This document shows, in pieces, positions 1,734 to 52,622 of a DNA stretch of 64,000 bases. Position numbers and translations under genes: made by a program. The first letter of the stretch is position 1; every line of letters begins with the position of its first letter. Source of the DNA: a bacterium (GTDB taxonomy: Bacteria > UBA8248); assembly GCA_965203325.1 (NCBI GenBank), contig OZ241875.1:3520001-3584000 (forward strand), written 5' to 3'. The notes under the pieces were generated by a model. The model ran no database searches. It was not told the origin of the DNA and saw only the letters and a list, made by a program, of their open reading frames with translations.

Positions 1734-1878
1734 GGGGTTGTTGAAAAAGACCTGATGAACAAGGGTTTTACGTGACCGTGGAGGGGCGGTTTTTGTAGGG
1801 GCCGCATATATGCGGCCCATGGTAGGCAGGCGTAAAAGGCCGGGTCGCATATATGTCGGACATATATGTCCGACCTAC
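1734..1878. repeat. Single IS-type terminal repeat plus GTAG-REP doublet between clpB and dnaK
   Basis: GGGGTTGTTGAAAAA at 1734-1748; GTAG+GGGCCGCATATATGCGGCCC (1795-1818); second palindrome ending CTAC at 1878; 1734-1818 closely matches the reverse complement of about 14564-14647. Confidence 0.85.
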
Positions 1879-1923
1879 AATCGATAAAACTTTAATTTTG
1901 TATCCCGATAAGGAGAAAGTTTG

Positions 1924-3840
1924 ATGTCGAAGGTAATCGGAATCGATTTGGGCACCACCAACTCGGTCGTCTCCGTCATGGAGGGTGGGCAGCCTACGGT
2001 CATCGCCAACCAGGAGGGCAACCGCACGACGCCCAGCGTCGTGGCGTTCACCGACGACGGGGAGAAGCTCGTCGGCCTCGTGGCCAAGCGCCAGGCGGTG
2101 ACCAACCCGACCAAGACCATCTATTCCGCAAAACGCTTCATGGGCAGGCGTTTCGCCGAGGTGCCCGAAGAGGTCACCATCGTGCCCTATGAGGTCGTGA
2201 AGTCGGACAGCGGCGACGCGCGCATCCGGATCGACGGCAAGGAACACGCTCCGCCCGAGATTTCGGCGAGCGTGCTGCAAAAGCTCAAGCAGGCCGCGGA
2301 GGACTACCTGGGCGAGCAGGTGACCGAGGCGGTCGTCACGGTGCCCGCGTATTTCAACGACAGCCAGCGCCAGGCGACGAAGGACGCCGGGAAAATCGCC
2401 GGTCTCAACGTCCAGCGCATCATCAACGAACCCACGGCCGCCGCCCTCGCCTACGGACTCGACAAGAAGGCGGATCAGACCATCGCCGTGTACGACTTCG
2501 GCGGGGGCACGTTCGACATCTCCATCCTCGAGGTGGGGGACAACGTGGTCGAGGTGAAGGCCACGAACGGCGATACGCACCTGGGCGGCGACAACATCGA
2601 CCACCGGATCATCGAGTGGATGGCCGAGGAGTTCAAGAAAGACCAGGGAATCGACATCTCCGGCGACCCGATGGCGCTCCAGCGCCTGCGCGAGGAGTCC
2701 GAGAAGGCGAAGATCGAGCTTTCGAGTTCGATGGAGACGACCATCAACCTGCCGTTCATCACGGCGGACGCCTCGGGTCCCAAGCACCTGAACCTGAAGC
2801 TCACGCGCGCGAAACTCGAACAGCTGACCGGCGATCTGGTGGAGAAGACGCTGGGTCCCTGCCGGCGCGCGCTCGATGACGCCAAGGTCCAGCCCGGCGA
2901 CATCGACGAGGTCGTGCTGGTGGGCGGTTCGACACGGATGCCGCTCGTGCAGGAGACGGTGGAGAAATTCTTCGGAAAAGAGCCCCACAAGGGCGTGAAT
3001 CCCGACGAGGTCGTGGCGGTCGGCGCGGGCGTGCAGGGCGGCGTGCTCGCCGGAGACGTGAAGGACGTCCTGTTGCTGGACGTCACCCCGCTCTCGCTGG
3101 GTATCGAGACGCTGGGCGGCGTGTCCACCAGGCTCATCGAGCGCAACACGACGATACCCGTCAAGAAGAGCGAGACCTTCTCGACCGCGGCGGACAACCA
3201 GCCCTCCGTCGAGGTGCACGTCTTACAGGGCGAGCGCGAGATGGCCTCGGGCAACCGCTCGCTGGGCAAGTTCCATCTCGTCGGCATTCCCGCCGCGCCC
3301 CGGGGCGTTCCCCAGATCGAGGTGACGTTCGACATCGACGCCAACGGCATCGTGAACGTCTCCGCCAAGGACCTCGGCACCGGCAAGGAGCAGGCGATCA
3401 CCATCACGAGTTCGAGCGGCCTCTCCGAGGATGAGATCAACAACATGGTGGCCGATGCGGACGAGCACGCCGAGGAGGACAAGAAACGGCGCGAGGCCGT
3501 CGAGGCGAGAAACATGGCCGACAGCATGGCGTACAGCACGGAGAAGATGCTCAAGGAGAACGAGGAGAAGGTGTCGGCCGAAGACAAGAAGGAAATTGAG
3601 GACGCCATCGCCGCGCTCCGGGCGGTTCTCGCGAAAGAGGACGCGACGGTGGAGGAGATCAAGGAAGCGCAGGAAAAACTCGAGGCGGCCTCGCACAAGC
3701 TCGCGCAGGCGATGTACGAACAGGCGAGTCAGGCTGGCGACGGCCCCGAGACGCCTGAGTCCGGCGGCGGTGAGAACGGCGCGCCGGCGGGCGACGTGGT
3801 GGATGCGGAGTTCGAGGAGGTGGACAAGGACAAGTCCTAG
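1924..3840 (+). CDS. dnaK: Chaperone DnaK (Hsp70)
   Basis: [42 protein letters not shown] upstream. Confidence 0.99.
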
Positions 3841-3864
3841 CAGTCCTGCCCGGATGAGGACGGT

Positions 3865-4818
3865 ATGCCTAAGCGTGATTATTACGAGGTGCTGGGGATT
3901 GACCGGAGCGCCTCGGAAGCGGAACTGAAGCGCGCCTTCAAGAAGCTGGCGCGGACGTATCACCCCGACGTGAACCCGGGGGATGCGAAGGCCGAGGAGC
4001 GCTTCAAGGAGATCAGCGAGGCCTACGCCGTCATCTCGGACCCCGAGAAGCGCAGAAAATACGACGCCATGGGACACGCCGCCTTCGGCGGGGGCAGCCC
4101 CTGGGGCGAGGGCGCTCCGCCCGGCATGGAGGACATTCTGCGCGAGTTCGGCCTGGGCGATATTTTCGGCGGGATTTTCGGCGGCGCGCGCGGCGGTGCG
4201 GCACGCGGCGGCTTCCACGCGCAGTCCCAGGCCCCCCGGAAGGGCCAGGACGTGAACTACTCGATGGAGATCGGTTTCGACGATTCCCTGAAGGGGCTCA
4301 ACACCACCATCACCGTGCCCAAGACCACGAACGAGAACGGGAAGATCCAGCACACCACCGAGCGCATTCAGGTGAAGATACCGCCCGGCGTCTCGAACGG
4401 CTCGCGCATCCGCCTGGCGGGCAAGGGGGAAACCTCGCTGAACGGGGGACCGCAGGGGGACCTCTTCATCGTCACAAAGGTGCGCGAACATCCCTTCTTC
4501 GAGCGCAAGGGGGATAATCTGTATCTTGAACTTCCCGTCAGCCTCGGCGAGGCGCTGCTGGGCGCGCGCGTGGAGATCAACACCTTCGAGGGGGCGATGA
4601 AGATGACGATTCCCCCCTCGACCCAGAACGGCCAGGTTTTCAGGCTTTCGGGTAAGGGGGCTCCGAAACTCAAGGGCTCGGGCAAGGGGGATTTGATCGT
4701 CAGGGTCCGGGTCTTGTTGCCCGATCAGATGGATGAGGAGAGCAGGGAGATCGTCCGCGAACTCGAACGGCGCAACCCCACGTCGCCGCGTGCGAACATG
4801 ACGGGCGTGAGCATGTAG
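3865..4818 (+). CDS. Class B J-domain protein (CbpA/DnaJ2-like, no zinc finger)
   Basis: J domain with HPD, G/F region, C-terminal DnaJ domain, no CxxCxGxG repeats. Confidence 0.93.
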   Translation: MPKRDYYEVLGIDRSASEAELKRAFKKLARTYHPDVNPGDAKAEERFKEISEAYAVISDPEKRRKYDAMGHAAFGGGSPWGEGAPPGMEDILREFGLGDIFGGIFGGARGGAARGGFHAQSQAPRKGQDVNYSMEIGFDDSLKGLNTTITVPKTTNENGKIQHTTERIQVKIPPGVSNGSRIRLAGKGETSLNGGPQGDLFIVTKVREHPFFERKGDNLYLELPVSLGEALLGARVEINTFEGAMKMTIPPSTQNGQVFRLSGKGAPKLKGSGKGDLIVRVRVLLPDQMDEESREIVRELERRNPTSPRANMTGVSM

Positions 4819-4873
4819 TCATGGGCGGATGCGGGCGTGAGCAGATATATGACGAGAGGCTCAGGAGAGGATA

Positions 4874-5281
4874 ATGGCGCGTAGAGGCGTGAGAGACGGG
4901 CGCTACACCATCAGCGCGGTGGCCGAGATGTTCGAGATACACCAGCAGACGCTCAGGATGTATGAGCGCCAGGGTCTCATCGAACCGGGCCGCAGCGAGG
5001 GCGGGACGCGCTATTACTCCGAGGAAGATATCGATCAACTAGAAGTCATCATGGCGCTCACGCGGGATATGGGCGTGAATCTGGCGGGCGTGCAGGTCAT
5101 CATCGAGCTTCGCGATAAGCTGATGAGCGCGCTCGAACGTCTCGGCGAGCTCGAGGAACTGATCGAGAGCCGTGCGTTCGAGGAATTCCGCGAGCAGATG
5201 AACAACGCGACGCCAGAGATGCAGGCCATGATACCTTCGGTCGCCGCCAAACTCGTGCGTGTCAGGAGGAGGCGGTTGTGA
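4874..5281 (+). CDS. hspR: MerR-family heat-shock repressor, HspR-like
   Basis: [28 protein letters not shown]...GVNLAGV; directly after a J-protein in a dnaK operon. Confidence 0.85.
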
Positions 5282-6138
5282 GCACGAATTCTATAAAATC
5301 CTTTTTGCTGCTCGGTCTGTTGACGGGGCTGATCCTGCTCATCGGGAATCTGCTCGGCGGCACGACCGGGCTGGTGATCGCCCTGGTGCTCGCGGTGGGC
5401 ATCAACGGCTACAGCTACTGGTATTCGGACAAGATCGTTCTCGCCAGCACGGGCGCGAACGAGGTGCTTCCGGAACATGCGCCCGAGCTCTACGGCATGG
5501 TGGCGGACCTGGCGCGCCGCGCGAACCTCCCCATGCCGCGCGTCTACGTCATTCCCGAGGATGCGCCGAACGCCTTCGCCACGGGCAGAAACCCCGAAAA
5601 CGCCGCCGTCGCCTTCACCGAGGGAATTTTGCACGATCTGAATCGTGAGGAACTCGAAGGCGTGGCCGCGCACGAACTCGCCCACATCAAGAACCGCGAC
5701 ATTCTGCTGAGCACCATCGCCGCCTCCCTGGCGGGCGCCATCATGTATCTCGCGCAGATGGCGCAGTTCGCCGCGTTCTTCGGCGCCTACGGCAGGGACG
5801 ACGACGAGGAGGGCGGCGGGGGCGGCCTGCTGGGCATCATCGTCGCCGCCATCGTGGCGCCCATTGCGGCGACGCTGCTCCAGATGGCGGTGAGCCGCTC
5901 GCGCGAGTACCTTGCCGACGCCACGGGCGCGCAAATCGCGGGCACGCCGGTGGGTCTTGCGAACGCCCTGCATCGACTGGACGAGGCCGCCCACCGCGAG
6001 GAACTCCACTGCGCGAGCGAGGCGACCGCCCACATGTATATCGTCAACCCGCTCGCGGGAGGCGGTCTGGCGAACCTTTTCAGCACGCACCCGCCGATGG
6101 AGGAGCGGATTCGGCGGCTGATGGAAATGAGATACTAG
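5278..6138 (+). CDS. htpX: Zinc metalloprotease HtpX (M48)
   Basis: [30 protein letters not shown]; start overlaps hspR stop (GTGA). Confidence 0.96.
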
Positions 6139-6159
6139 GATCCGGGAGGAAGTCGTTTC

Positions 6160-6867
6160 ATGAAAGCGAAGGATGTAAAGGTCGAGACGGATAACGGCGA
6201 TGGCGCGAAGGCCGAAGCCGAAGCCGCGGAGCCGGTGGACGCGGAGGAAGAAGCCAAGGAGAAGCCGCGCGTCGTGGACAGGCGGCGCGTCCGCGAAGAC
6301 GGCGAGGTGAGTGAGGAGAGCGAAGCGGAGGCCGAGGAAACCCCGCGCGTGCCCGCCTACGTGGAGCAACTCCAGGCGAAGGTTGCCGCCGCCGAGGAGA
6401 AGTTCAAGGAATATGTCGAGAAAATCGACAAGGATACGGCCGATTTCCGGGCGCGCCAGGAACGCGAGATGGAGCGAAGGGCCCAGGAAGTGAAAAAACA
6501 GGCGGTCTCCGGTTTCCTGGGCATCGCCGACGATCTGGCGCGCGCCACGGCGGCCGTCGATAGCGAAACCTCTCAGGGGGAAAAAGGCAGCGCGCTGGAT
6601 ACCCTCGTGCAGGGGGTCCGGATGATTCAGGGCCGGTTCTTTCAGGAACTCTCGAACCTCGGGGTGGAGCCTCTCCCGGCGATGGGCGCCGCTTTCAATC
6701 CCCAGGAACACGAGGCGGTGCGCATGGTCGAGGTGGACGATGAGGCGCAGGACGGCCTTGTGGTCGAGGAGTTGGCTTGCGGCTACAGGCTGGGCGATGC
6801 GGTATTGAGGCCCGCGCGCGTCTCGGTGGGCAAGTATGCCGGCCCTCAGCCGGACGCGCGCCCTTGA
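6160..6867 (+). CDS. grpE: Nucleotide exchange factor GrpE
   Basis: Acidic N-terminus, coiled coil, FNPQEHEAV, GYRLGDAVLRPARVSV. Confidence 0.95.
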   Translation: MKAKDVKVETDNGDGAKAEAEAAEPVDAEEEAKEKPRVVDRRRVREDGEVSEESEAEAEETPRVPAYVEQLQAKVAAAEEKFKEYVEKIDKDTADFRARQEREMERRAQEVKKQAVSGFLGIADDLARATAAVDSETSQGEKGSALDTLVQGVRMIQGRFFQELSNLGVEPLPAMGAAFNPQEHEAVRMVEVDDEAQDGLVVEELACGYRLGDAVLRPARVSVGKYAGPQPDARP

Positions 6868-6926
6868 ACCGGATGCGCGCGCATAGTATGTTCGCGTGTT
6901 TTCGATTTTAGGTACGAAGGGAAAAC

Positions 6927-8075
6927 ATGAGCAAGCGTGACTACTACGAAGTGCTGGGTGTAGACCGCAACGCGAGCGACGCCGAGATCAAAAAGGCGTA
7001 TCGCACGCTGGCGATGCAGCATCATCCCGATCGCAACTCCGGCGATGCGAAGGCGGAGGAATTGTTCAAGGAAGCCTCCGAGGCCTACCAGGTGTTGAGC
7101 GAGCCCGAGAAGCGGAGCGCGTATGATCGTTTCGGCCATGACGGGCTTCGGGGAATGGGGCATCAGGGTTTTTCGAGTTTCGACGATATCTTCTCCTCGT
7201 TCGGGGATATTTTCGGCGATCTGTTCGGCGGCGCATTCGCAGGTGGACGCTCCCGCCGCGACGGGCCGCGCCAGGGCCGGGACCTCGCCTATGAACTGGA
7301 GATGACGTTCGAGGAGGCGGCTTCGGGCATCGAGCGTGAAATCGAATTCGAGCGGCCCGTGGAATGCGTCTATTGCGGCGGAAGCGGGGCGAAGTCGCCC
7401 GATGCGATTCGCGAGTGTCCATCGTGCGGCGGCAGCGGGCAGATGTCCTACCGCCAGGGTTTCATGACCTTTTCCACCACCTGTTCGGACTGCGGCGGCA
7501 CGGGAAGGCGAATCACCGAGCACTGCGCGGAATGCGGCGGTACCGGACGCCGCCTGGAGCAGCGGAAGATGAAGGTGAAGATTCCCCCCGGCGTGGACGA
7601 GGGCGCCAGGCTGCGCCTTCGCGAAGAGGGGGAAGGGGGCGCCAAGGGCGGGCCGGCGGGCGATTTGTTCGTCGTCGTCTCCATGCTCGCGCACGAGGAA
7701 TTCGAGCGCAACGGGTCGGACGTGGCGAGCCAGGTATTCGTTTCGTTCTCCCAGGCCGCGCTCGGCGATACGGTGAAGGTGAGGACGCTCTACGGGGAAT
7801 CCGAACTCGAGATACCCAAGGGGGTGCAGTCCTCGGACGTGTTGAGGCTCAAGGGCGAGGGATTCCAGCGCCTGGGGAGGAGAGGGCGCGGCGATCACAT
7901 GTTTCTGGTTCACGTCCGGACGCCGACGAGATTGACGTCGGACGAGGAGAGGCTGTTTGGCGAATTGTCGGAGATCGAACGTGAAAAGGCGGAGAAAAAC
8001 GGGACGGGAGGCGTCGCGGGAAACGGCGCCGGAAAAAAGGGTATTCTCGATAAGTTGAGTTCTCTTTGGGGATAA
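6927..8075 (+). CDS. dnaJ: Class A chaperone DnaJ
   Basis: J domain with HPD; four CxxCxGxG zinc-finger repeats. Confidence 0.97.
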   Translation: MSKRDYYEVLGVDRNASDAEIKKAYRTLAMQHHPDRNSGDAKAEELFKEASEAYQVLSEPEKRSAYDRFGHDGLRGMGHQGFSSFDDIFSSFGDIFGDLFGGAFAGGRSRRDGPRQGRDLAYELEMTFEEAASGIEREIEFERPVECVYCGGSGAKSPDAIRECPSCGGSGQMSYRQGFMTFSTTCSDCGGTGRRITEHCAECGGTGRRLEQRKMKVKIPPGVDEGARLRLREEGEGGAKGGPAGDLFVVVSMLAHEEFERNGSDVASQVFVSFSQAALGDTVKVRTLYGESELEIPKGVQSSDVLRLKGEGFQRLGRRGRGDHMFLVHVRTPTRLTSDEERLFGELSEIEREKAEKNGTGGVAGNGAGKKGILDKLSSLWG

Positions 8076-8144
8076 GCGCGCATTCAGGCAAATGAGAAGA
8101 GACGGCGTCCGATAGCCCCGGGGTCGGACGCCGGAGGGCAAGCG

Positions 8145-8678
8145 ATGGAAGAGGAAAACGTAGAAGATAAAGGGTTCAAGATTTCCGACCGGAGATTCTC
8201 CGTAAGGGGATATGAGGATGAAGAATCGCCTGCTTCCGGAGGTGAAGGGCAGTTGCTCTCCCCGGATGCGGCGTATGAAGAGATGAGTCCGCCAACCGGC
8301 GCGTTCGCGCCAGGTCCCGAGGCGATGGAGCCGGAACCGGCTCCACCCCCGGAGGTTCCGCAACCCCAAGCCGAGGAAAGGGAGCAGCCTCCGGCCGAGG
8401 ACGCGGATGCGGATGAGGAGGAAGAAGAGGAAGACAAGAGTTTCGAGATGCTCATCGCCATCGTGCAGCAAAACGCTCTGGCGGCGATGGGCATTCACCC
8501 GCAAACCGGAGAGCGCCTCGGGGCGGCGGACCCGCGAAGTTCCAAAATTTTCGTCGACTTGTTCGCCGCCCTCAAGGAGAAGACGGAAGGCAACCTTACT
8601 CAGGAGGAGGAACATCTTCTGAATCAGGTTCACTCCGATCTGCAAATGATATATGTTCGGGAGGTTGGGTTCGGATAG
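8145..8678 (+). CDS. DUF1844-like protein with acidic/Pro-rich linker
   Basis: FKISDRR N-terminus; C-terminal LKEKTEGNLTQEEEHLL...LQMIYV. Confidence 0.8.
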   Translation: MEEENVEDKGFKISDRRFSVRGYEDEESPASGGEGQLLSPDAAYEEMSPPTGAFAPGPEAMEPEPAPPPEVPQPQAEEREQPPAEDADADEEEEEEDKSFEMLIAIVQQNALAAMGIHPQTGERLGAADPRSSKIFVDLFAALKEKTEGNLTQEEEHLLNQVHSDLQMIYVREVGFG

Positions 8679-8758
8679 GCCCGAAGGATCGGCGAGGCGC
8701 CGATTCGATGCGCGTCATCCCCAACAGTCCTTTTTGTTTACCTCATGCGGGAGATTAC

Positions 8759-9034
8759 ATGACCGTGTCCACGTCTTATGACGAGATGTTCGAAGAAGCG
8801 CTCGGTGTCGTCAAGAATCGTTTCCTCCTTTCGGTACTGCTCGCCAAGCGGGTGGCCCAGCTCAGGCGGGGTGCGGAGCCTCTGGTTCCCTCGCAGTCCA
8901 ACGAGACGCCCGAGGAGATCGTGTTCCGCGAGATTATCGAGGAAAAACTGGAGTGGCGAAAGACCGCGTCGGCCCTGGATTTGACCGATGTTGACCAGGG
9001 ATTCATGGATGTCGGGTTCGACGACGAGGCGTAG
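8759..9034 (+). CDS. rpoZ: RNA polymerase omega subunit
   Basis: NRFLLSVLLAKRVAQLRRGAEPLV...VFREI; GGAG upstream of ATG 8759. Confidence 0.88.
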   Translation: MTVSTSYDEMFEEALGVVKNRFLLSVLLAKRVAQLRRGAEPLVPSQSNETPEEIVFREIIEEKLEWRKTASALDLTDVDQGFMDVGFDDEA

Positions 9035-9057
9035 CCTCGCCTGAAAGCGCACGCTGG

Positions 9058-9091
9058 CCGCTGCCCGGTCCGCCGGGCGGCGGTTTTTGTT
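9058..9091 (+). terminator. Rho-independent terminator after rpoZ
   Basis: CCGCTGCCCGG-TCCG-CCGGGCGGCGG stem-loop followed by TTTTTGTT. Confidence 0.75.
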
Positions 9092-9194
9092 GGGAATCAA
9101 ATCTTTCGGTTGACGACTCCTTTTCGCCCGTCAGTTCGTCCCTCTTTCTTCAAAACCGATTCTTCCTGCCCGGGTTTTCCCGCTCTCGCCTTGA

Positions 9195-9468
9195 GGGGTT
9201 GTTGAAGAAGCTCTCACATCTCTCTCATCCTGAAAACCAACCCCCCCTACCCCCCCTTAACAGGGGGGTAAAAAAAGAAAGCCCCCTTGTCAGGGGGTAT
9301 GAAATGGCGATGCCCGCCACCGATAGAGGGGGGTTTTGATTTTTCTTGCCCCCCTGTCAAGGGGGGGTAGGGGGGGTTGCCTTTATCCTCTGACATGGGG
9401 GGTTGGGGGTCGAACGCGACCGGAGAGAGAGTGTTCGCTCCCTTGACAAAGGCTTTCTCAACAACCCC
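9195..9468. mobile_element. MITE-like element with IS1182-type ends and internal C/G-tract inverted repeats
   Basis: GGGGTTGTTGAAGAA (9195-9209) and TTTCTCAACAACCCC (9454-9468); internal 30-bp inverted repeat 9239-9268 / 9349-9378 with one mismatch; extra CCCCCTTGTCAGGGGG hairpin near 9282. Confidence 0.8.
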
Positions 9469-9489
9469 CTCAAGGGGAAGTGAATTACA

Positions 9490-10653
9490 TCATTCCCTTT
9501 CTTGCCGCTCCCTCAGGAACGCCCCCACTCTTTCGAGGCCGGCCTCGATGTTTTCGACCGAGTTGCAGTAGGAAAACCGCAGGAACCCCTCTCCACCCGG
9601 CCCGAAATCTGCTCCCGGCGCCACGGCCACGCCGGTGGCTTCGAGAATTTCTTTTGCCAGTTCCAGGCTGTCCGCCCCGTACGCGCGCGCATCGGCGAAG
9701 GCGTAGAACGCGCCCGTCGGCTCGTGAAGCATTTTGAGGCCGATGTCCTCCAGGCGCGCGAGCATGATCTTGCGCCTTTCGTCATAAATCCCGCGCATGC
9801 GCTCCGCCTCGGGCACGCCGTCCTTGAGAGCGGCGACCGCCGCGTGCTGGACGAAGGAATTGGGCGAGACGAAATAGTTTTGCTGCAGTATCTCCAGCGG
9901 GCGGACGTATTCGGGGGGCACGATGAGATAGCCGACCCGCCAGCCCGTCATGGCGAAATACTTCGAGAAACCGTTGATGACGAAACAATCCTCCGTGAAG
10001 TGGAGCGCCGTGTATTCCGCGTCCTCGTAGCTGAGTCCGTGATAAATCTCGTCCGAGACGATGGGAACTCCCAACTCGGCGAGCGCCGCCATATCCCCTC
10101 GCGAGAGCGATGCGCCCGTGGGATTGGAAGGCGAGTTGATGAGGATGGCCCTGGTGTTCTCGGTGATGTGCTCACGGACGGCCTCGGCCTTGAGCGCGAA
10201 GCCGTGCTCCGCATGGGTGGGGACCCGCACGGGCCTCCCGCAGGCGGAGAGGATGAAAGCCGGGTAGCAGGCGTAGTGGGGATCTGAAATGACGATCTCA
10301 TCGCCCGCATCCACGAGAACGGAGAAGAGCATCAGCAGACCCGGGCTCGTGCCGTTCGTCACCACCACGCGCCCGGGCGATACGGATACGCCATATTTGT
10401 GGTTGTAATATTCCGCGATCGCCTCGCGCAGCTCGGGAATTCCCAATGCCGCCGTGTAGTGGGTGTGGCCGGCGCGCAGGGCGTCCTCGGCGGCACGGGT
10501 GATGACCCCGGGCGTATCGAAATCGGGCTCTCCCACTTCCAGGTGGATAACATCGCGGCCCTGGGCCTCCAGTTGATGGGCGCGCTCCATGATGTCCATC
10601 ACCAGGAAGGGCTTGATGCCCGAGATGCGCGCCGGGATGGAAAATTCCTTCAT
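9490..10653 (-). CDS. PLP-dependent class I/II aminotransferase
   Basis: GEPDFDTP, NSPSNPTG, SDEIYH, GFSKYFAMTGWRVG. Confidence 0.95.
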   Translation of the reverse strand: MKEFSIPARISGIKPFLVMDIMERAHQLEAQGRDVIHLEVGEPDFDTPGVITRAAEDALRAGHTHYTAALGIPELREAIAEYYNHKYGVSVSPGRVVVTNGTSPGLLMLFSVLVDAGDEIVISDPHYACYPAFILSACGRPVRVPTHAEHGFALKAEAVREHITENTRAILINSPSNPTGASLSRGDMAALAELGVPIVSDEIYHGLSYEDAEYTALHFTEDCFVINGFSKYFAMTGWRVGYLIVPPEYVRPLEILQQNYFVSPNSFVQHAAVAALKDGVPEAERMRGIYDERRKIMLARLEDIGLKMLHEPTGAFYAFADARAYGADSLELAKEILEATGVAVAPGADFGPGGEGFLRFSYCNSVENIEAGLERVGAFLRERQERE

Positions 10654-10854
10654 GTTTTTTGACCTTTTATGTTTCCAGTTGTTTTTTAAGTGGTTGCTCA
10701 CCTGCAAGGCTAGTGGTAAAGTGCATTGAACTCAAGACGTTACACGGATTGATGAACTTTGAATAGGGAATCAGAGAATTTTCCACTCCGGTCTTGTTCC
10801 CTGTACGAGGACGGGGTTGCGCACAAATATGGTGGGTAAGAAGGAGGGAGTCCT

Positions 10855-11148
10855 TTGACGAAAATCGACATCATCAACCTCGTGTCGGACGATACGGGTC
10901 TCAGCAAAGTGAAGTCGGAAGAAGCGGTAGAGACGATCATCCAGACCATCAAGGAATCCCTCCAGAACGGCGAGTCGGTTATTCTAAGGCGCTTCGGTTC
11001 TTTCCAGGTGAGAACAAAGAACCCCCGCGTGGGGCGCAACCCCAAGACGGGTCAGGAAGCGCCCATCAGCGCGCGCCGCGTCGTGCGCTTCAAGGCGGGC
11101 AAGCACTTCAAGGATGCGGTGAACGGCGCCGACGTGAAATTCCATTGA
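10855..11148 (+). CDS. HU/IHF-family DNA-binding protein
   Basis: MTKIDII...FGSFQVR...GRNPKTG...VRFKAGK; TTG start with GGAG upstream. Confidence 0.95.
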   Translation: MTKIDIINLVSDDTGLSKVKSEEAVETIIQTIKESLQNGESVILRRFGSFQVRTKNPRVGRNPKTGQEAPISARRVVRFKAGKHFKDAVNGADVKFH

Positions 11149-11169
11149 GCTGGTGGTTCTCCCGGCCCC

Positions 11170-12201
11170 CTAGCTTATCAGCATGGCGTCCCCGTAGCTG
11201 TAGAACCGGTATCTCTCATCAATCGCCTCCGCGTATGCGCCCAGGATTTTCTCCCTGCCCGCGAACGCCGCCACGAGCATGAGCAGGGTCGAGCGCGGCA
11301 GGTGGAAATTCGTCAGCATCATGTCCACCAGGTGAAACCGAAAGCCCGGCCGGATGAACAGTCGAGTGCTGAACTCCCCCGCCTGTAGCGTCCGGCCTCG
11401 GGCGGCCGCCTCGATATGTGCGGATTCCAGCGCCCGGACCACCGTCGTGCCCACGGCCAGGATGCGGCCGCTGGCCGATTTGGTCTCATGGATCGAGGCG
11501 ACGACATCTTCGGTGAGAATATAGCTTTCCGCCTCCATCTCGTGTTCTTCGATGTTTTCCGCCTGAACGGGCCGGAACGTCCCGGCGCCCACGTGGAGGG
11601 TGAGCCTCGCGATGCGCGCACCTGCGGCCGAGACCTCTTCGAGCAGCGTTTCGCTCAGGTGGAGGCCCGCCGTGGGCGCGGCGACCGCGCCGGGGTTTCG
11701 GGCGAAGACGGTCTGGTAGCGCTCCTTGTCGACCGCCTCGGCGCTTCTTTCCAGATAGGGCGGGATCGGCATTTCTCCGAAAGATTCCAGCCACTCGATA
11801 AGATCATCCGGGGAGGAGAATTCGATCTCTCTCTTCAGACCCTGCGCCCCGAGCGTGGCGCGGTGCGCCTCGTCGAAGACGATGGTTTCGCCCTCGGGCA
11901 GCGGGCGGTTGGCGCGCGCCATGGCGCGGAATTTTCCGGGCGAAAGCTGCTTGAGCAGCAAGACCTCGACCCGGCCGCCGCTCTCCCGCCTGCCGTGAAT
12001 CCGCCACGGGTTCACCTTCGTGTCGTTGATGACGACCAGATCCCCCGGACGCAAATGACGCGGCAGGTCGGTGACCTGAAGATGCGCGAGCCCCTCGCCC
12101 TCCCTGGGCAGGTGGAGCAGCCTCGCGTCTTCTCGTTTCGGCGGCGGGTAGCGGGCGATGAGGTTTTTGGGCAGGTGATAGTCGAAGTCGTCTAGTTTCA
12201 T
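11170..12201 (-). CDS. queA: S-adenosylmethionine:tRNA ribosyltransferase-isomerase
   Basis: FDYHLP, PIPPYL, AVAAPTAGLH, LHVGAGTFRP, TNFHLPRST, YRFYSYGDAM. Confidence 0.97.
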   Translation of the reverse strand: MKLDDFDYHLPKNLIARYPPPKREDARLLHLPREGEGLAHLQVTDLPRHLRPGDLVVINDTKVNPWRIHGRRESGGRVEVLLLKQLSPGKFRAMARANRPLPEGETIVFDEAHRATLGAQGLKREIEFSSPDDLIEWLESFGEMPIPPYLERSAEAVDKERYQTVFARNPGAVAAPTAGLHLSETLLEEVSAAGARIARLTLHVGAGTFRPVQAENIEEHEMEAESYILTEDVVASIHETKSASGRILAVGTTVVRALESAHIEAAARGRTLQAGEFSTRLFIRPGFRFHLVDMMLTNFHLPRSTLLMLVAAFAGREKILGAYAEAIDERYRFYSYGDAMLIS

Positions 12202-12245
12202 GCGTTTCACGCTCTATCCGGTTCCCTTCGGGACGACGCCCGAAG

Positions 12246-13079
12246 TCAGTCTTCGTCCGCTTCACCCGGGCGGGACGAGACGGCGGCCTCATCCGGCCCG
12301 TCTTTTTCTCCCGGATGAAGGAGTTTCCAGATCGCCTGCCGCAGCACGCCGCGCATCACCCGGACCTCCCTCTCGTCCGGCCCCAGCCTGTCGAGCATCT
12401 TTCTGAAAGTCCGGGCCACGCGGTCCGGGTCGTTGTGGGGGACGAAGCCTATCTGCTCCATGGATTCGAGGAGGTGATCCACGAGTCCCTCGATTTCCTC
12501 GCGCGATGCGGGCTCGCCCTCATTCGCGCGCTCGCGCTTCGCATCGCCGACTCCGGGCCGGGCGTTCGGCTGGTTCCGGCAGAACAACTCCCACAAGACG
12601 ATCAGCACGGCCTGGGAGAGGTTGAACGACTCACCGTCGGGCAGCGCGGGGATGAGGAGCCTCTCCTGGCACAGGCTCAACTCCTCGGTGAACAGGCCCT
12701 TGTCCTCCTGCCCGAACACCAGGCCGACCTTCACCCCCGATGCGCGCGCGAGCAGATCGCCCGCATCCTCTCTCGGGCGCATGGTGGGCTGCCGTTTCCT
12801 GCCGAGGCGCCTCGACGTCCCCACCAGCCAGCCGCAATCGTGGGAGGCCTCGCGAAGACTCGCGAAATGCTTCGCGCCGAGCAGTAAGGGCTGCGCGTTC
12901 ATGGCCATCGAGCGCGCCTCCACGCTCTTGACGTCGCACCGGGGCGAGACGAGGCGCAAGTCCGACAGGCCGAAGTGCGACATGACGCGCGCGACCGCGC
13001 CCACGTTCCCGGCGCCCCTCGGGCGCACGAGGATGACGGCGAAATCGGCGTTTTCTTCCAAGGAAACGGGTTCGTCCAT
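12246..13079 (-). CDS. trmJ: TrmJ/LasT-family SPOUT RNA methyltransferase
   Basis: GNVGAVARVMSHFG, VFGQEDKGL, SFNLSQAV, EVRVMRG. Confidence 0.85.
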   Translation of the reverse strand: MDEPVSLEENADFAVILVRPRGAGNVGAVARVMSHFGLSDLRLVSPRCDVKSVEARSMAMNAQPLLLGAKHFASLREASHDCGWLVGTSRRLGRKRQPTMRPREDAGDLLARASGVKVGLVFGQEDKGLFTEELSLCQERLLIPALPDGESFNLSQAVLIVLWELFCRNQPNARPGVGDAKRERANEGEPASREEIEGLVDHLLESMEQIGFVPHNDPDRVARTFRKMLDRLGPDEREVRVMRGVLRQAIWKLLHPGEKDGPDEAAVSSRPGEADED

Positions 13080-13270
13080 GAAGCGAAATCACCATGTTGG
13101 AAAATCTGGAATTTACGGCTCACCTGCGCCGGGTGCAGCTTTCGTCCATGCTCCCGGCGCAGGCCATGCCCTTTCCTCCTCATAGCACGAAGCGGCCCGG
13201 CCTGTCATAAACGAATCGGGTGTGAACGCCGGATTTCGGGAGAATTTGCGATAGTGTCCCAGTTTGAAAA

Positions 13271-13865: not shown

Positions 13866-13892
13866 TATTCTTCCTTTTTCAGGTATTTTTAG

Positions 13893-20945: not shown

Positions 20946-20946
20946 G

Positions 20947-42390: not shown

Positions 42391-42540
42391 GAAGGCTCCT
42401 TTTCGTATGAGCGAACGCGATCCATCGGCTGTTCGCGAGACGCGATTATCCTGTCATAAAGAGGGCTGTTTGAAAAACTTATGGGGGGAAGCCCTGTCGA
42501 GTTGTTAGGGAAGTCATCCTCGGTCGCGATTGACCACCGC

Positions 42541-43548: not shown

Positions 43549-43576
43549 GGAATTGTTGAGGCCCATCGTTATCGCT

Positions 43577-43740
43577 GTAGGGACAGGACAGGTCGCGACC
43601 TGTCCCTACGGGCTGATGAGGAAGCAATTGCTCTTTTGTAGGGGCGGACCCATGTGTCCGCCCGATTTTTTAGATTTCGACCATTGCAATGCAAATTATG
43701 AACGTCGAATAGATGGGCGGACACATGGGTCCGCCCCTAC
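43577..43740. repeat. GTAG-REP cluster between convergent genes
   Basis: GGACAGGTCGCGACCTGTCC+CTAC; GTAG+GGGCGGACCCATGTGTCCGCCC and its exact inverse ending at 43740. Confidence 0.88.
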
Positions 43741-47465: not shown

Positions 47466-47666
47466 GTGGAGAAAATCGGGCGGCAACTGTTCGGGGAATG
47501 GATTTTGGGGGGAATCGCATACATGACTCGACCACAGGGGACATTGCATTTGCCCCCTTGTCAGAGTTGTTGAAAAAGCCCTCATCGGGGGACATTGCCT
47601 TTAGCGGGAATGCCGCTTTCGCGCGAGCCCTCGATTTCCCTCGTCGAAAGGCAACCCCCCCTTGTC

Positions 47667-49182
47667 GGGGCTGTTGAAAAACCCCGTTTTGAAGCGGGAT
47701 GTATGGCGGCTCACGCGGCTTGGGAGAGGAAGCCCAATCGGCGCGTGAGGCCGCGATATGCGCTCATTCGGCGTTTCCGGGCGGCGCAGGCTCTCCACAG
47801 AGCGAACAAACGCGCCGCAACAGCGGCGGCGAGCCGCTTGAGGTTCACCGCAGCCGCCGTCAGGTAGGCCTGGATCTTCATGTTCGCAAGACCCCGGCGC
47901 ACCGCCCGCGCCAGTCCGTGCCGACTCTTCGCCTCGCCGTGATAGCCTTCGGAGCGACCCATGTGCCGGCGCCACAGCCGACCCTCCTCCTCCCCACGGC
48001 GCGCGTGGCGACGGCGTGCGCGCAACAGCGCCGGATACTCGTGCGGAACCAGCACCGTCCGGCTCGTGCGGGACTTCGACAGACAATCGGCCTTGAGCGA
48101 GCAACCCGCGCAATCGCGCGTCCTCGATACATAGTAGCGACCCCGCTCCGTCTCCTTCCGGGGACGCAGCGTCTTGCCACCCGGACACTTCACCACCTTG
48201 TGACGCTCGTCGTAGCGGAACAGTTGCAGCGGCACCCGGCTCTGGGTGGGTTCCTTCTTCGCCGGTATCACCGCGTCCACCCCCCGACGCTCCAATGCGC
48301 CGTACACCTTCGAGTACGCATAGCCACTATCCGCCGTCACCACCGCGGGCGCGCGACCCGTGAGCTCGCAAACCGCATCCAGCTGCGGCTCCATCATCTC
48401 CCGCTCGTTCAACGTCCCCGCCGTCACCTCTACGTCGAGGACAACGCCCCGCTCATCGTCCACCACCGCGTGGTGCTTGTAGCTCGGCTCGAACCCCGCC
48501 CGAGCGCTCTTGCGCGCCAGACGCGCGTCGGGGTCCGTTCGGCTCACAGGACCCGAACCCCCGCCACCGCCCTTCTTCCCCATCTCATCCGCCGAGTCGT
48601 TCTCCCGCACCACCTTCTCCGCGTGGCGCTCCGCCAGACTCTCCCAACTCACGTCCGCACGTATCAAAGACGCGTCCATGTGAACCACTTCTCCCTTCGC
48701 CACCTTCGCCTCCACGCAAGCCTGAACCGTGCGCCGAAATATCTCCTTGAACCGCTCCTCCCCCCAGCGCTGACGAATCCGCGTCAGGCTCGAATGATCC
48801 GGCAAATCCTCGTCCAGCCTGTACCCGATGAACCACCGGACCGCCAGATGCGCCTGCGCCTCGCGCAGCAGGCGGCGGTCCTCCGCGTAGCCCAGCAGCA
48901 GGCCCGCCAGCATCAACCGGATCACCACTTCCGGGTCGATCCCCGGTCGACCGTTGTCCGCGCAATAGCACTCCGCCACTTCCTCGCGAAGCCAACTCAA
49001 ATCCAGTACGCGGTCCACCTGGCGCAATATGTGATCTTCGGGAATCAACTTCTCCAGCGGGCCGGCCACGAACAAGTCCATCTGCTCGCGCCTCTTGCGG
49101 TCCAACATCTCCGGAACTCCCATCTCGGGCGAGGGGGAATACATCCATACGCTCACAAAACCAGGGGTTTTTCAACAGGCCC
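47667..49182 (-). mobile_element. IS1182-family insertion sequence, copy 1
   Basis: Ends GGGGCTGTTGAAAAA / TTTTTCAACAGGCCC; TTGTC direct repeats at 47662-47666 and 49183-49187. Confidence 0.93.
47711..49108 (-). CDS. IS1182-family DDE transposase
   Basis: GRPGIDP, LAVRWF, PDHSSL, MDAS, TADSGY, RSEG..GEAK, AVNLKRL. Confidence 0.93.
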   Translation of the reverse strand: MLDRKRREQMDLFVAGPLEKLIPEDHILRQVDRVLDLSWLREEVAECYCADNGRPGIDPEVVIRLMLAGLLLGYAEDRRLLREAQAHLAVRWFIGYRLDEDLPDHSSLTRIRQRWGEERFKEIFRRTVQACVEAKVAKGEVVHMDASLIRADVSWESLAERHAEKVVRENDSADEMGKKGGGGGSGPVSRTDPDARLARKSARAGFEPSYKHHAVVDDERGVVLDVEVTAGTLNEREMMEPQLDAVCELTGRAPAVVTADSGYAYSKVYGALERRGVDAVIPAKKEPTQSRVPLQLFRYDERHKVVKCPGGKTLRPRKETERGRYYVSRTRDCAGCSLKADCLSKSRTSRTVLVPHEYPALLRARRRHARRGEEEGRLWRRHMGRSEGYHGEAKSRHGLARAVRRGLANMKIQAYLTAAAVNLKRLAAAVAARLFALWRACAARKRRMSAYRGLTRRLGFLSQAA

Positions 49183-49271
49183 TTGTCAGGGGGGTAAGAA
49201 GAAGCAACACCCCGACGAGAGAGGTATCACTCCCCCTTTGCAGAGCAACCAACAATCACTCCCCCCTTGAG

Positions 49272-50793
49272 GGGGCTGTTGAAAAACCCCGTTTTGAAGC
49301 GGGAGGTATGGCGTCTCACGCAGCGGCGGAGAGGAAGCCCGCGAGGTGCGTGAGGCCGCCAGGAACGCGCATTCGGCGTCTCAAGGCGGCGCAGGCCCTC
49401 CACAGAGCGAATAAACGCGCCGCAACAGCGGCGGCGAGCCGCTTGAGGTTCACCGCAGTCGCCGTCAGGTAGGCCTGGATCCTTATGTTCGCAAGACCCC
49501 GGCGCACCGCCCGCGCCAGGCCGTGCCAACTCTTCGCCTCGCCGTGATAGCCCTCCGAGCGACCCATGTGCCGGCGCCACAGCCGACCCTCCTCCTCCCC
49601 ACGGCGCGTGTGGCGACGGCGCGCGCGTAACAGCGCCGGATACTCATGCGGAACCAGCACCGTCCTGCTCGTGCGGGACTTCGACAGACAATCGGCCTTG
49701 AGCGCGCAGCCCGCGCAATCGCGCGTCCTCGATACATAGTAGCGACCCCGCTCCGTCTCCTTCCGGGGGCGCAGCGTCTTGCCCCCCGGACACTTCACCA
49801 CCTTGTGACGCTCATCGTAGCGGAACAGCTGCAACGGCACCCGGCTCTGGGAAGGCTCCTTCTTCGCCGGTATCACCGCGTCCACCCCCCGACGCTCCAA
49901 TGCGCCGTACACCTTCGAGTACGCATAGCCCGAATCCGCCGTCACCACCCCGGGCGCGCGCCCCGTGAGCTCGCAAACCGCATCCAACTGCGGCTCCATC
50001 ATCTCCCGCTCGTTCAACGTCCCCTCCGTCACCGCAACGTCGAGGACAACGCCCCGCTCATCGTCCACCACCGCGTGGTGCTTGTAGCTCGGCTCGAACC
50101 CCGCCCGAGCGCTCTTGCGCGCCAGGCGAGCGTCCGGGTCCGTTCGGCTCACAGACCCCGAACCCCCGCCCCGGCCTTTGCCCTTCTTCTCCGTCTCATC
50201 CTCCGAATCGTTCTCCCGCACCACCTTCTCCGCGTGGCGCTCCGCCAGACTCTCCCAGCTCACGTCCGCACGTATCAAAGAGGCGTCCATGTGAACCACC
50301 TCTCCCGTCGCCACCTTCGCCTCCACGCAAGCCTGAACCGTGCGGCGCAATACCTCCTTGAAGCGCTCCTCCCCCCAGCGCTGGCGAATCCGCGTCAGGC
50401 TCGAATGGTCCGGCAACTCCTCGTCCAGCCTGTACCCGATGAACCACCGGATCGCCAGGTGCGCCTGCGCCTCGCGCAACAGACGCCGGTCGTGGGCGTA
50501 GCCCAGCAGCAGGCCCGCCAGCATCAACCGAACCACCACTTCGGGGTCCAGGCCCGGACGGCCATTGTCCGCGCAATAGCACTCCGCCACTTCCTCGCGA
50601 AGCCAGCTCAAATCCAGTACGCGGTCCACCTGCCGCAATATGTGATCTTCGGGAATCAACTTCTCCAGCGGGCCGGCCACGAACAAGTCCATCTGCTCGC
50701 GCCTCTTGCGATCCAGCATCGAGGGAACTCCCATCTCGGGCGAGTCGGGATAACTCCATACGATCACAAAACCAAGGGTTTTTCAACAGGCCC
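49272..50793 (-). mobile_element. IS1182-family insertion sequence, copy 2
   Basis: Same ends; TTGAG direct repeats at 49267-49271 and 50794-50798. Confidence 0.93.
49316..50719 (-). CDS. IS1182-family DDE transposase
   Basis: Near-identical to copy 1; intact frame. Confidence 0.93.
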   Translation of the reverse strand: MLDRKRREQMDLFVAGPLEKLIPEDHILRQVDRVLDLSWLREEVAECYCADNGRPGLDPEVVVRLMLAGLLLGYAHDRRLLREAQAHLAIRWFIGYRLDEELPDHSSLTRIRQRWGEERFKEVLRRTVQACVEAKVATGEVVHMDASLIRADVSWESLAERHAEKVVRENDSEDETEKKGKGRGGGSGSVSRTDPDARLARKSARAGFEPSYKHHAVVDDERGVVLDVAVTEGTLNEREMMEPQLDAVCELTGRAPGVVTADSGYAYSKVYGALERRGVDAVIPAKKEPSQSRVPLQLFRYDERHKVVKCPGGKTLRPRKETERGRYYVSRTRDCAGCALKADCLSKSRTSRTVLVPHEYPALLRARRRHTRRGEEEGRLWRRHMGRSEGYHGEAKSWHGLARAVRRGLANIRIQAYLTATAVNLKRLAAAVAARLFALWRACAALRRRMRVPGGLTHLAGFLSAAA

Positions 50794-50970
50794 TTGAGGG
50801 GGAGTCGGCAAGACGAGGGCAAAGCCCGAAGTCGCGCCGGTGGGGGGAGAATTCCGACTGATAAAAGAGGAATTCCTGCGACCGAGGACAGAAGATTTAC
50901 TACAATAAAAGGCTCCCCCCACCACATCGGCCTTCGCAAAAACCGCTCGGCCTCTGTGACTCCCCCTCAA

Positions 50971-52495
50971 GGGTCTGTTGAAAAACCCTTGGTTTTGTGA
51001 TCGTATGGAGTTATCCCGACTCGCCCGAGATGGGAGTTCCCTTGATGATGGGCAGCAGGAGGCGCGAGCAGCTGGACTTGTTCGTGGCCGGTTCCATGGA
51101 GCAGTTGATTCCCGAAGATCACATATTGCGCCAGGTGAACCGCGTGCTGGATTTGAGCTGGCTTCGCGAGGAGGTGGCGGCGTGCTATTGCGCGGACAAC
51201 GGTCGACCGGGTCTGGACCCCGAGGTGGTGGTTCGGCTGATGCTGGCGGGCCTGCTGCTGGGCTACGCGCAGGACCGCCGCCTGCTTCGCGAGGCGCAGG
51301 CGCATCTGGCGATCCGGTGGTTCATCGGGTACGGGCTGCACGATGAGTTGCCGGATCATTCGAGCCTGACGCGTATCCGCCAGCGGTGGGGGGAGGAGCG
51401 GTTCAAGGAGATATTGCGCCGCACGGTTCAGTCTTGCGTGGAGGCGAAGGTGGCGAAGGGGGAAGTGGTGCACATGGACGCTTCGTTGATACGTGCGGAC
51501 GTGAGTTGGGCGAGTCTGGCGGAGCGCCACGCGGAGAAGGTGGTGCGGGAGAACGACTCGGCGGATGAGACGGAGAAGAAGGGCAAAGGCCGGGGCGGCG
51601 GGGGTTCGGGTCCGGTGAGCCGTACGGACCCGGACGCTCGCCTGGCGCGCAAGAGCGCTCGGGCGGGGTTCGAGCCGAGCTACAAGCACCACGCGGTGGT
51701 GGACGATGAGCGGGGCGTTGTCCTCGACGTTGCGGTGACGGAGGGGACGTTGAACGAGCGGGAGATGATGGAGCCGCAGTTGGATGCGGTTTGCGAGCTC
51801 ACGGGGCGCGCGCCCGGGGTGGTGACGGCGGATTCGGGCTATGCGTACTCGAAGGTGTACGGCGCATTGGAGCGTCGGGGGGTGGACGCGGTGATACCGG
51901 CGAAGAAGGAGCCTTCCCAGAGCCGGGTGCCGTTGCAGCTGTTCCGCTACGATGAGCGTCACAAGGTGGTGAAGTGTCCGGGGGGCAAGACGCTGCGCCC
52001 CCGGAAGGAGACGGAGCGGGGTCGCTACTATGTATCGAGGACGCGCGATTGCGCGGGCTGCGCGCTCAAGGCCGATTGTCTGTCGAAGTCCCGCACGAGC
52101 AGGACGGTGCTGGTTCCGCATGAGTATCCGGCGCTGTTACGCGCGCGCCGTCGCCACACGCGCCGTGGGGAGGAGGAGGGTCGGCTGTGGCGCCGGCACA
52201 TGGGTCGCTCGGAGGGCTACCACGGCGAGGCGAAGAGTTGGCACGGACTGGGGCGGGCGGTGCGCCGGGGCCTTGCGAACATGAGGATCCAGGCCTACCT
52301 GACGGCGACTGCGGTGAACCTCAAGCGGCTCGCCGCCGCTTTTGCGGCGAGTATATTCGCTCTGTGGAGGGCCTGCGCCGCCTTGAGACGCCGAGTGCGC
52401 GTTCCTCTCGGCCTCGCGCGCCGATTGGGCTTCCTATCCCAAGCCGCGTGAGCCGCCATTCAGCCCGCACCAAAACGGGGTTTTTCAACAGCCCC
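50971..52495 (+). mobile_element. IS1182-family insertion sequence, copy 3
   Basis: GGGTCTGTTGAAAAA / TTTTTCAACAGCCCC; CTCAA direct repeats at 50966-50970 and 52496-52500. Confidence 0.93.
51045..52451 (+). CDS. IS1182-family DDE transposase
   Basis: Near-identical to copies 1 and 2; intact frame. Confidence 0.93.
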   Translation: MMGSRRREQLDLFVAGSMEQLIPEDHILRQVNRVLDLSWLREEVAACYCADNGRPGLDPEVVVRLMLAGLLLGYAQDRRLLREAQAHLAIRWFIGYGLHDELPDHSSLTRIRQRWGEERFKEILRRTVQSCVEAKVAKGEVVHMDASLIRADVSWASLAERHAEKVVRENDSADETEKKGKGRGGGGSGPVSRTDPDARLARKSARAGFEPSYKHHAVVDDERGVVLDVAVTEGTLNEREMMEPQLDAVCELTGRAPGVVTADSGYAYSKVYGALERRGVDAVIPAKKEPSQSRVPLQLFRYDERHKVVKCPGGKTLRPRKETERGRYYVSRTRDCAGCALKADCLSKSRTSRTVLVPHEYPALLRARRRHTRRGEEEGRLWRRHMGRSEGYHGEAKSWHGLGRAVRRGLANMRIQAYLTATAVNLKRLAAAFAASIFALWRACAALRRRVRVPLGLARRLGFLSQAA

Positions 52496-52537
52496 CTCAA
52501 GGGGGGAGTGATTACGGACTGGCGCGGTGGTTCTGTG

Positions 52538-52622
52538 AGGACAGGCACGGAGGCCTGTCCCTACGGTAAACAATGCGATGATCGGGATGCCCTCCCCGAC
52601 GAGGGACTTCTCCAACACCCCC
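52538..52622. repeat. REP module plus degenerate terminal repeat
   Basis: 52538-52597 closely matches 31928-31987; TTCTCCAACACCCCC end abuts the TauE stop codon. Confidence 0.75.

Follow-up and report, generated by a model that had tools for sequence, protein, structure and literature searches.

The stretch analysed here (the window, 64,000 nucleotides long, positions 3520001-3584000 of G000:C1, in a one-contig genome, of 4.39 Mb and 60% GC, from a sponge-associated bacterium) carries three copies of an insertion sequence (IS) of the IS1182 family and a series of small elements bounded by the same type of inverted repeat (IR), which resemble MITEs (transposable elements of the miniature inverted-repeat type). 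The best defined of them is a MITE of 309 bp (31780-32088) with perfect inverted ends, flanked by a perfect duplication of the pentamer GGAGG (31775-31779 and 32089-32093, the whole feature spanning 31775-32093). It is inserted at the stop/start overlap between a gene coding for an ABC ATPase (31107-31790) and a gene coding for an FtsX/MacB-type permease (32104-34698). The ATPase gene now ends at a TGA codon that the inverted repeat provides (31788-31790), three codons past the insertion point, and the duplicated GGAGG is the ribosome-binding site located 9 nt upstream of the permease ATG; therefore, both genes are intact.

Three further MITE-like elements are present in the window. The first one (9195-9468, 274 bp), recognised by its ends and by empty sites in related genomes, contains a dual-arm palindrome, here called C7TAC7, and its outer flanks are half-hairpins (CTTGA and CTCAA); since both flanks are half-hairpins, the 5-bp flanking sequences do not match. 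Another element of 248 bp (20947-21194), whose right end is degenerate (21180-21194), carries the same type of palindrome. The third (14481-14647, 167 bp) contains a doublet of repetitive extragenic palindromic (REP) sequences, similar to the REP doublets forming hairpins (REPINs), has a degenerate right end (14631-14647) and belongs to a recurrent family defined by subterminal clusters 7 and 18. A larger host MITE (47563-52622), whose right end has three mismatches, would measure about 490 bp without the three IS copies that it contains. It has three C-run hairpins, each filled by one IS copy: copy A (47667-49182, minus strand, 1516 bp) is flanked by a duplication of TTGTC (47662-47666 and 49183-49187), which is the loop of a C7/G6 hairpin; copy B (49272-50793, minus strand, 1522 bp, with its transposase encoded at 49316-50767) duplicates TTGAG, the loop of CTCCCCCC-TTGAG-GGGGAG; and copy C (50971-52495, plus strand, 1525 bp) duplicates CTCAA, the loop in the opposite arm of the dual-arm palindrome hit by copy B. 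In addition, two single ends are found, both on the plus strand: a left-type end followed by a subterminal module of cluster 18 and a GTAG-type REP (1734-1818), for which a right partner was sought and none was found, and a degenerate end with one extra T followed by a GTCATTCCGGC-type module (42463-42477). The intergenic gap that contains the 1734 end has a different size in all five relatives compared.

Ends were identified as matches to a 15-mer, GGGGYTGTTGAAAAA, with up to two mismatches, degenerate partner ends being accepted at three mismatches. The window contains 14 matches at up to two mismatches, versus 0.15 expected from shuffled sequences. Six of them are the termini of the three IS copies and the others bound the small elements (1734, 9195, 9454-9468 on the minus strand, 14481, 20947, 31780, 32074-32088 on the minus strand and 47563), with ends at three mismatches at 14633-14647, 21180-21194, 42463-42477 and 52608-52622. 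The complete genome holds 467 ends (136 exact, 174 with one mismatch and 157 with two) versus 14 in the reversed-sequence control, each of these with two mismatches, and a chance or artefactual origin is ruled out by the shuffles together with this control. The conserved core extends to 19 bp (GGGGYTGTTGAAAAA[G/C][C/T]CC), and C is enriched outside the ends at positions -11 to -6 (45-59% C). An initial annotation of this DNA, made from the sequence alone, had already placed the elements and the single ends at 1734 and around 42463, and all these coordinates hold, every end matching with three mismatches or fewer; its attribution of the ends to a DDE-type IS is supported by the IS1182-family model and by the Pfam domains of the transposase.

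The IS has a size of 1513-1525 bp, contains one open reading frame (ORF) of 481-484 aa and has GGG[G/C/T]CTGTTGAAAAACCC at both termini. Elements of the IS1182 family have a single ORF, a length of roughly 1.3-2 kb (the size range in ISfinder) and terminal inverted repeats, and the window IS shows this organization. Its transposase is recognised by the NCBIfam model for IS1182 (NF033551; 349.4 bits, with a cut-off of 270), which assigns it to this family, and contains the domains DUF772, DDE_Tnp_1_6 and DDE_Tnp_1 above the Pfam cut-off. There are 16 copies in the genome, one of them frameshifted; six 1522-bp copies located at different sites, copy B among them, differ by 0-1 nt, an indirect indication that the IS has moved recently. 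The two halves of a C5-7/loop/G5-7 hairpin flank all 16 copies, and the 5-bp target duplication, perfect in nine of them, corresponds to the hairpin loop (TTGAG, CTCAA, TTGTC, GACAA, TTGAC and similar sequences). Two kinds of hairpin are hit: CTCCCCCC-TTGAG-GGGGGGAG, which makes up both arms of a dual-arm palindrome, and a small hairpin within each arm of the C7TAC7 palindrome. Relatives of this IS in five other genomes of the genus (G030, G007, G021, G027 and G023) have retained its ends and the 5-bp duplications, as have two copies in a metagenome-assembled genome of an Alphaproteobacterium (about 65% protein identity). A 1522-bp variant on the minus strand followed, 177-205 bp further on, by a 1525-bp variant on the plus strand occurs twice in the genome (G000:C1:3032541-3035792 and window 49272-52495). 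These pairs are not a segmental duplication, because their flanking hairpins differ, and may be due to local hopping or to chance.

Once the 32 IS ends are subtracted, 435 non-IS ends remain. Consecutive ends no more than 700 bp apart face inward (plus, then minus) in 98 cases versus nine facing outward, and an inverted partner (up to three mismatches) lies 25-600 bp inward of 246 of the 435 non-IS ends versus 21 in the outward direction; same-orientation neighbours within 700 bp are also found (37 plus-plus and 29 minus-minus). The 98 pairs have a median length of 267 bp and the ends of the small elements agree with those of the IS at 13-15 of 15 positions, so that in short length and IS-like terminal repeats they correspond to MITEs. 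They are putatively non-coding and have only the 15-19 bp of their ends in common with the IS; an origin as IS deletion derivatives is ruled out, since their interiors have no IS homology past these ends. When all 123 plus/minus pairs are considered, the flanks match perfectly in 14 cases at a length of five, in one at a length of four and in none at a length of six, with 1.7 expected. Among the 212 non-IS combinations, six perfect 5-bp duplications were found (controls 0, 2 and 1.0) and 26 that match in at least four of five positions (controls 2, 6 and 5.6), and pairing of non-consecutive ends gained just one further perfect duplication.

The interior of the small elements consists of a short linker followed by a palindromic module. 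Clustering of the 56 nt behind each end gave 214 clusters, of which about 29 contain at least three members, and the linker between end and module is conserved within clusters. The modules include the C7TAC7 dual-arm palindrome, three types of GTAG REPs, GTCATTCCGGCGAAAGCCGGAAT, CCTGAGTAGCGGCG... and the CTCCCCCC-TTGAG hairpin, which is also found as CTCCCCCC-TTGAG-GGGG. Counted in 150-bp zones at either side of the ends, modules are 4-18 times commoner directly inside than outside: C7TAC7 (111 versus 6), REP1 (43 versus 4), REP2 (46 versus 11), GTCATTCCGGC (53 versus 7), CTCCCC..TTGAGGGG (56 versus 15) and a sixth module (31 versus 6). Furthermore, a correctly oriented end lies within 110 nt of 109 of the 213 C7TAC7 arms, versus 13 of 213 in the inverted control. 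Modules are combined in different ways: some cluster pairs recur (5+6 four times; 7+18, 21+28 and 1+4 three times each), and cluster 0 joins with eight other clusters. In the window, the three cases of module sharing that had been noted previously are confirmed by alignment, 1751-1818 with 14631-14564 (91% over 68 bp), 31928-31987 with 52538-52597 (90% over 60 bp) and 9351-9393 with 21126-21168 (95% over 43 bp), and the elements at 9195 and 20947 also share three matches of 26-27 bp in their C7TAC7 arms.

The elements also carry the target of the IS. The genome contains 350 candidate target hairpins of the form C5+/N4-6/G5+, and 199 of them lie no more than 200 bp inside non-IS ends, a zone that represents 1.6% of the genome. 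Eight IS copies are located between upstream and downstream inward-facing ends within 430 bp and, together with the three copies of the window, 11 of the 16 copies are inside IR-bounded elements. No IS or small element was seen inserted in the loops of GTAG REPs.

Comparison with orthologous sites in relatives revealed the presence/absence polymorphism that is characteristic of MITEs at the four loci examined (31780, 20947, 9195 and 47563-52622), and in all four the genomes with an empty site have no palindromic module there. At the 31780 locus, four of ten relatives (G005, G009, G003 and G008) have a precise empty site, and the other six are filled by an element with the same ends and the same GGAGG duplication, with an equal interior only in G012. 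Two of the filled genomes (G011 and G007) contain a second end, in the same orientation, nested within the outer element, and these are intermediates of nested insertion; G010 has a complete nested MITE, with a CTTCA duplication in a C5/G6 hairpin. The 20947 locus is empty in five of ten relatives (G003, G005, G007, G009 and G002) and filled at the same point in G012, G010, G011, G021 and G004, with at least one half of the interior different from that of G000. At the 9195 locus, five of eight relatives are empty (G002, G021, G007, G003 and G009) and G010, G011 and G012 are filled, each with a different interior, and in G012 the C7 loop is occupied by an IS that duplicated TTGTC. The 47563-52622 locus is empty in one of five relatives (G007) and holds the element without any IS in G010, G012, G011 and G022, the three IS copies of the window being absent from the locus in all five. 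The C7 loop TTGTC that received copy A in G000 is intact in G011 and contains, in G012, a nested MITE flanked by the same TTGTC duplication; no other single observation argues as strongly for an insertion chemistry common to the IS and the small elements.

Six of the seven MITE-bearing intergenic loci of the window (1680-1910, 9089-9507, 13245-14634, 20947-21194, 43551-43718 and 47563-52622) have another size or content in G012, the closest relative compared, with flanking genes 91-97% identical. Among the seven, only the 31780 element is conserved there. One of these loci includes a low-GC stretch of about 1.2 kb (13245-14480) that adjoins the 14481 element and has three small ORFs on the minus strand (115, 110 and 72 aa), none of which gave a match above the cut-off in a Pfam scan. 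This interval measures 72-573 bp in the five relatives compared, and a contig (X1) from the sponge metagenomes (public runs matching the window DNA) joins position 13224 to 14453 through 24 other letters; the stretch resembles an islet specific to this strain. In a contig (X1), the gap 1682-1910 is also swapped for 890 other letters. As evidence of mobility, the sponge-metagenome contigs over window positions 1500-21400 were uninformative, because they break at the repeats.

Other genes that could mobilise some of the modules are found elsewhere in the genome. Two ORFs of 169 and 180 aa, similar to REP-associated tyrosine transposases (RAYTs), match the Y1_Tnp domain (26.6 and 29.4 bits; cut-off 23) and are flanked by REPs of the REP2 type (GTAGGGACAGG). 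They are located at G000:C1:1659143-1659652 and 1662402-1662944 (positions 644-1153 and 3903-4445 of locus L092), with 2.7 kb and the genes for an alcohol dehydrogenase and a fumarase-type lyase between them, and a REP copy lies within each of the two reading frames (locus positions 938-947 and 4132-4157). GTAG repeats accompanied by a flanked Y1 gene were found for the REP2 module only. REPINs are bounded by palindromes alone and have neither DDE-type ends nor duplications, a description that does not fit the IR-bounded elements, which as a whole are not REPINs. A gene coding for a DUF559 protein (132 aa, 134 bits) is located at G000:C1:3268300-3269900, within tandem arrays of units of about 48-50 bp, each of which holds CAACTCCCCCCTTGAGG; dual-arm CTCCCCCC palindromes lie alongside and an IS-type end is found about 465 bp downstream.

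Across the genus, represented by 23 genomes, ends are distributed unevenly: six genomes have 0-5 ends, all of them without the transposase, and 17 have between 48 and 806, the transposase being present in 14 of these 17. The three end-rich genomes without transposase are assemblies of 190-470 contigs. The CTCCCCCC hairpin has 38-300 copies in end-rich genomes versus 0-1 elsewhere, REP2 has 24-344 versus 0-11, and C7TAC7 is present in 13 of the 17 end-rich genomes, with 0-3 copies in the others.

The small elements and the IS share their ends, a 5-bp duplication where one is recognisable and a hairpin-loop target, they nest in one another and they are polymorphic between relatives. The reading that we favour, with a probability of roughly 0.7, is that the small elements form a swarm of MITEs with mosaic interiors that is moved in trans by a hairpin-loop-targeting transposase. 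The enzyme would most likely be the transposase of the IS, and its preferred target would be the loop of a short GC-rich hairpin, chiefly of the type C-run/loop/G-run. The ends alone would suffice for mobility, so that any DNA located between two inward-facing ends could travel, and the cargo would be a shifting mix of palindromic modules. Because several modules hold hairpins targeted by the IS and by the MITEs, new copies land inside old ones. The halves of the elements would be swapped when nested insertion is succeeded by loss of the DNA between ends of equal orientation and by recombination between copies, while the outer ends would stay fixed at their genomic site and the interior would be replaced, as the intermediates in relatives suggest. 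Halves could also be exchanged if both arms of a dual-arm palindrome received insertions and the middle part was subsequently lost, which would explain flanks with TTGAG at the left and CTCAA at the right. The outcome would be nested mosaic repeats in intergenic DNA, with a turnover much faster than that of the flanking genes.

A more far-reaching proposal, which we put forward as possible and tentative, is that the IR-bounded elements act as self-renewing landing pads: their copies would export their own target hairpins, the IS and the MITEs would nest in MITEs and not in genes, the interiors would be serially replaced while the outer ends stay in place, and palindromic repeats that otherwise rely on enzymes of their own (RAYTs for REPINs, perhaps a DUF559 nuclease for dual-arm palindromes) would hitch-hike on a DDE transposase. 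A self-reinforcing loop between the IS and the repeats is plausible in such a setting. The initial annotation had described interiors that are not shortened ISs, modules shared between elements (shared and recombined, as is now visible in clusters, pair counts and alignments) and elements that carry the target of the IS itself, all of which is supported. None of the three checks that it named refutes it: 5-bp duplications at paired ends are in excess, presence/absence polymorphism exists, and repeats are commoner inside the ends than outside. Its wider proposals hold in part. REP-like repeats as landing sites are borne out for C-run/G-run hairpin loops and not for the loops of GTAG REPs; the dispersal of repeats by a DDE shuttle agrees with the shared ends and modules, and meets the objection that REP2 has its own RAYT-like genes and that full-length families are few; and the self-reinforcing loop finds its targets carried inside the ends, the co-expansion of the repeat families in the same 17 of 23 genomes being non-discriminating.

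Several observations weigh against a MITE swarm moved by the IS transposase. Only five of the 98 consecutive pairs within 700 bp have a perfect duplication, most of them showing no recognisable one, and only 26 of the 98 paired elements belong to full-length families (nine, with identities of 68-95%), so recent transposition of whole MITEs in this genome is not established. It may be that many pairs were never mobilised as one piece; since full-length families are few and most pairs have no duplication, many are rearranged mosaics and not simple transposition products. A flanking stem of at least 4 bp is found in 10 of the 26 non-IS pairs with duplications matching in at least four positions, versus 15% of random sites, and hairpin targeting by the small elements is a preference, not a rule. 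The MITE consensus end has T at position 5 and G at position 16, and the resident IS has C at both, an IS with T at position 5 being present in G030. Back-to-back ends separated by 4-5 bp, which were sought as a mark of re-used junction hairpins, are rare, with two cases in this genome and two examples in G010. The zones outside the ends are often coding DNA and the contrast with the inside is, therefore, partly expected, a caveat that is answered by the module-free orthologous empty sites. Finally, the repeat families, RAYT-linked REP2 included, are confined to the same 17 genomes and their co-occurrence with the IS may reflect one repeat-permissive lineage; because these genomes are kin and all families expand together, co-occurrence does not demonstrate that the IS drives the repeats. 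The rarity of duplications, the low identity between copies and the small number of families, as well as the IS-like subterminal sequence retained at three non-IS ends, would agree with small elements that are immobile fossils (old IS remnants and solo ends), varying through deletion and homologous recombination only. This is very improbable, given that the nested MITE of G012, with its perfect TTGTC duplication, is absent from the same loop in G011 and G000 (flanks 93-97% identical), that the interiors have no IS homology and that the number of ends varies from 48 to 806 among end-carrying genomes.

Different interiors at one orthologous site could also be due to separate insertions into a hot-spot hairpin and not to replacement of the interior. 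The strong preference of the transposase for particular hairpin loops, the loop that received the IS in G000 and a MITE in G012, and the repeated independent hits on a single hairpin that are reported for TnSha1, a relative of IS1272 (PMC4923244), speak for such an origin; it is, nevertheless, unlikely, since at the 31780 locus the left subterminal module is common to five of the seven filled genomes (G000 included) and the right one also to five of seven, module sharing is graded and nested ends lie inside. At the 20947 locus, the differences between the duplication's left copy and its right copy are similar across the filled genomes, which fits one old insertion, and at all loci the empty-site genomes are the more distant relatives. 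A further alternative, which we regard as rather doubtful, is that the modules (GTAG REPs, C7TAC7 and CTCCCCCC-hairpin palindromes) are independently mobile and invade or accumulate in IR-bounded shells, the DDE element dispersing none of them; their own enzymes would be the RAYT-like Y1 transposases and possibly a DUF559 nuclease. REP2 copies flank both RAYT-like genes, the DUF559 gene sits within CTCCCCCC-TTGAG repeat arrays, 112 of 169 REP2 and 89 of 213 C7TAC7 copies are more than 150 bp away from any end, C7TAC7 cores are 95-99% alike while full elements are 68-95% alike, and C7TAC7 is nearly absent from four genomes that have ends. On the other hand, empty-site genomes are module-free at all four loci, indicating that the modules came with or after the IR-bounded element and not before it; the nine full-length families (26 elements) repeat the order end-linker-palindrome-linker-end at different loci, and the linkers from end to module are conserved within clusters. 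Independent movement of modules is compatible with a MITE swarm mobilised by the IS, and does not exclude it.

This locus offers a concrete and testable case in which the insertion target of a transposase is carried by the enzyme's non-autonomous partners. Insertions are steered into junk and not into genes (11 of 16 IS copies are in MITEs), which may explain how the IS persists without destroying its host, and the system may also explain the joint spread of unrelated palindromic repeat families. To the hairpin targeting known in the IS1182 family it adds a mode in which the loop is hit and 5 bp are duplicated, and a transposase directed by structure, with ends that are short and defined, might be attractive as a tool; in practical terms, these repeats break short-read assemblies of sponge symbiont genomes. 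If the landing-pad proposal is true, there would be a positive feedback between the IS and the repeats that it targets, which would account for the growth of a 3-Mb lineage to 3.3-4.6 Mb and for its hundreds of mosaic repeats.

The closest described systems are IS1272 and its derivative TnSha1, which belong to the IS1182 family in staphylococci, target hairpins and are reported to produce no target duplication, the hairpin stem being partly deleted or replaced (PMC4923244, PMC5678879). They resemble the system described here in the transposase family, in targeting hairpins or inverted repeats with little primary-sequence specificity, in one hairpin being hit repeatedly and in the mobilisation of a non-autonomous derivative. 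In contrast to this 'IR-replacing' behaviour, in which there is no duplication and part of the hairpin is lost, the loop is the insertion point here, 5 bp are duplicated and neither hairpin arm is lost; nor do the IS1272 reports describe a swarm of hundreds of MITEs with palindromic cargo. Several other ISs (IS1397, ISPpu9/ISPpu10, ISPa11, ISPsy8 and ISRm22) insert specifically in repeated extragenic palindromes (PMC1525189). As in the present case, repeats serve them as landing pads, although they hit REPs of the host, which do not travel in MITEs bearing the ends of the IS, whereas here the targets are C-run hairpins. These REP-targeting ISs belong to the IS3 and IS110 families. Bacterial MITEs that share the ends of ISs reportedly include Chunjie in Geobacter and Nezha in cyanobacteria. 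Like the elements of the window, IS-linked MITEs are short and putatively non-coding, with IS-type repeats and presence/absence polymorphism; they have target duplications, which among the small elements here are in excess but recognisable in a minority of the pairs, and, as observed for the 31780 element, their insertion in an operon leaves both genes intact. Typical MITE families are, however, homogeneous in sequence, whereas here about 214 subterminal types are found on one end of 15-19 bp, halves are exchanged and the interiors carry the target of the transposase. Bacterial interspersed mosaic elements (BIMEs) and REPINs, together with RAYTs, are also intergenic palindrome mosaics, and both GTAG REPs and RAYT-like genes are present in G000, but those elements have neither DDE-type inverted repeats nor 5-bp duplications and depend on a Y1 HUH enzyme, while a DDE transposase is implied here. 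Mosaic non-autonomous elements, able through their ends to mobilise any DNA enclosed by them, are described for Tn3 (PMC4133298). Tn3-type elements use another transposase family and a replicative mechanism and, unlike the system described here, are not known to target hairpin loops. In the open-access literature, we found no description of an IS1182-linked MITE swarm with palindromic cargo that includes its own target, nor of MITEs in sponge symbionts. The combination consists of MITEs and a structure-targeting IS, which are both known kinds of element, and hairpin targeting in the IS1182 family has already been published.

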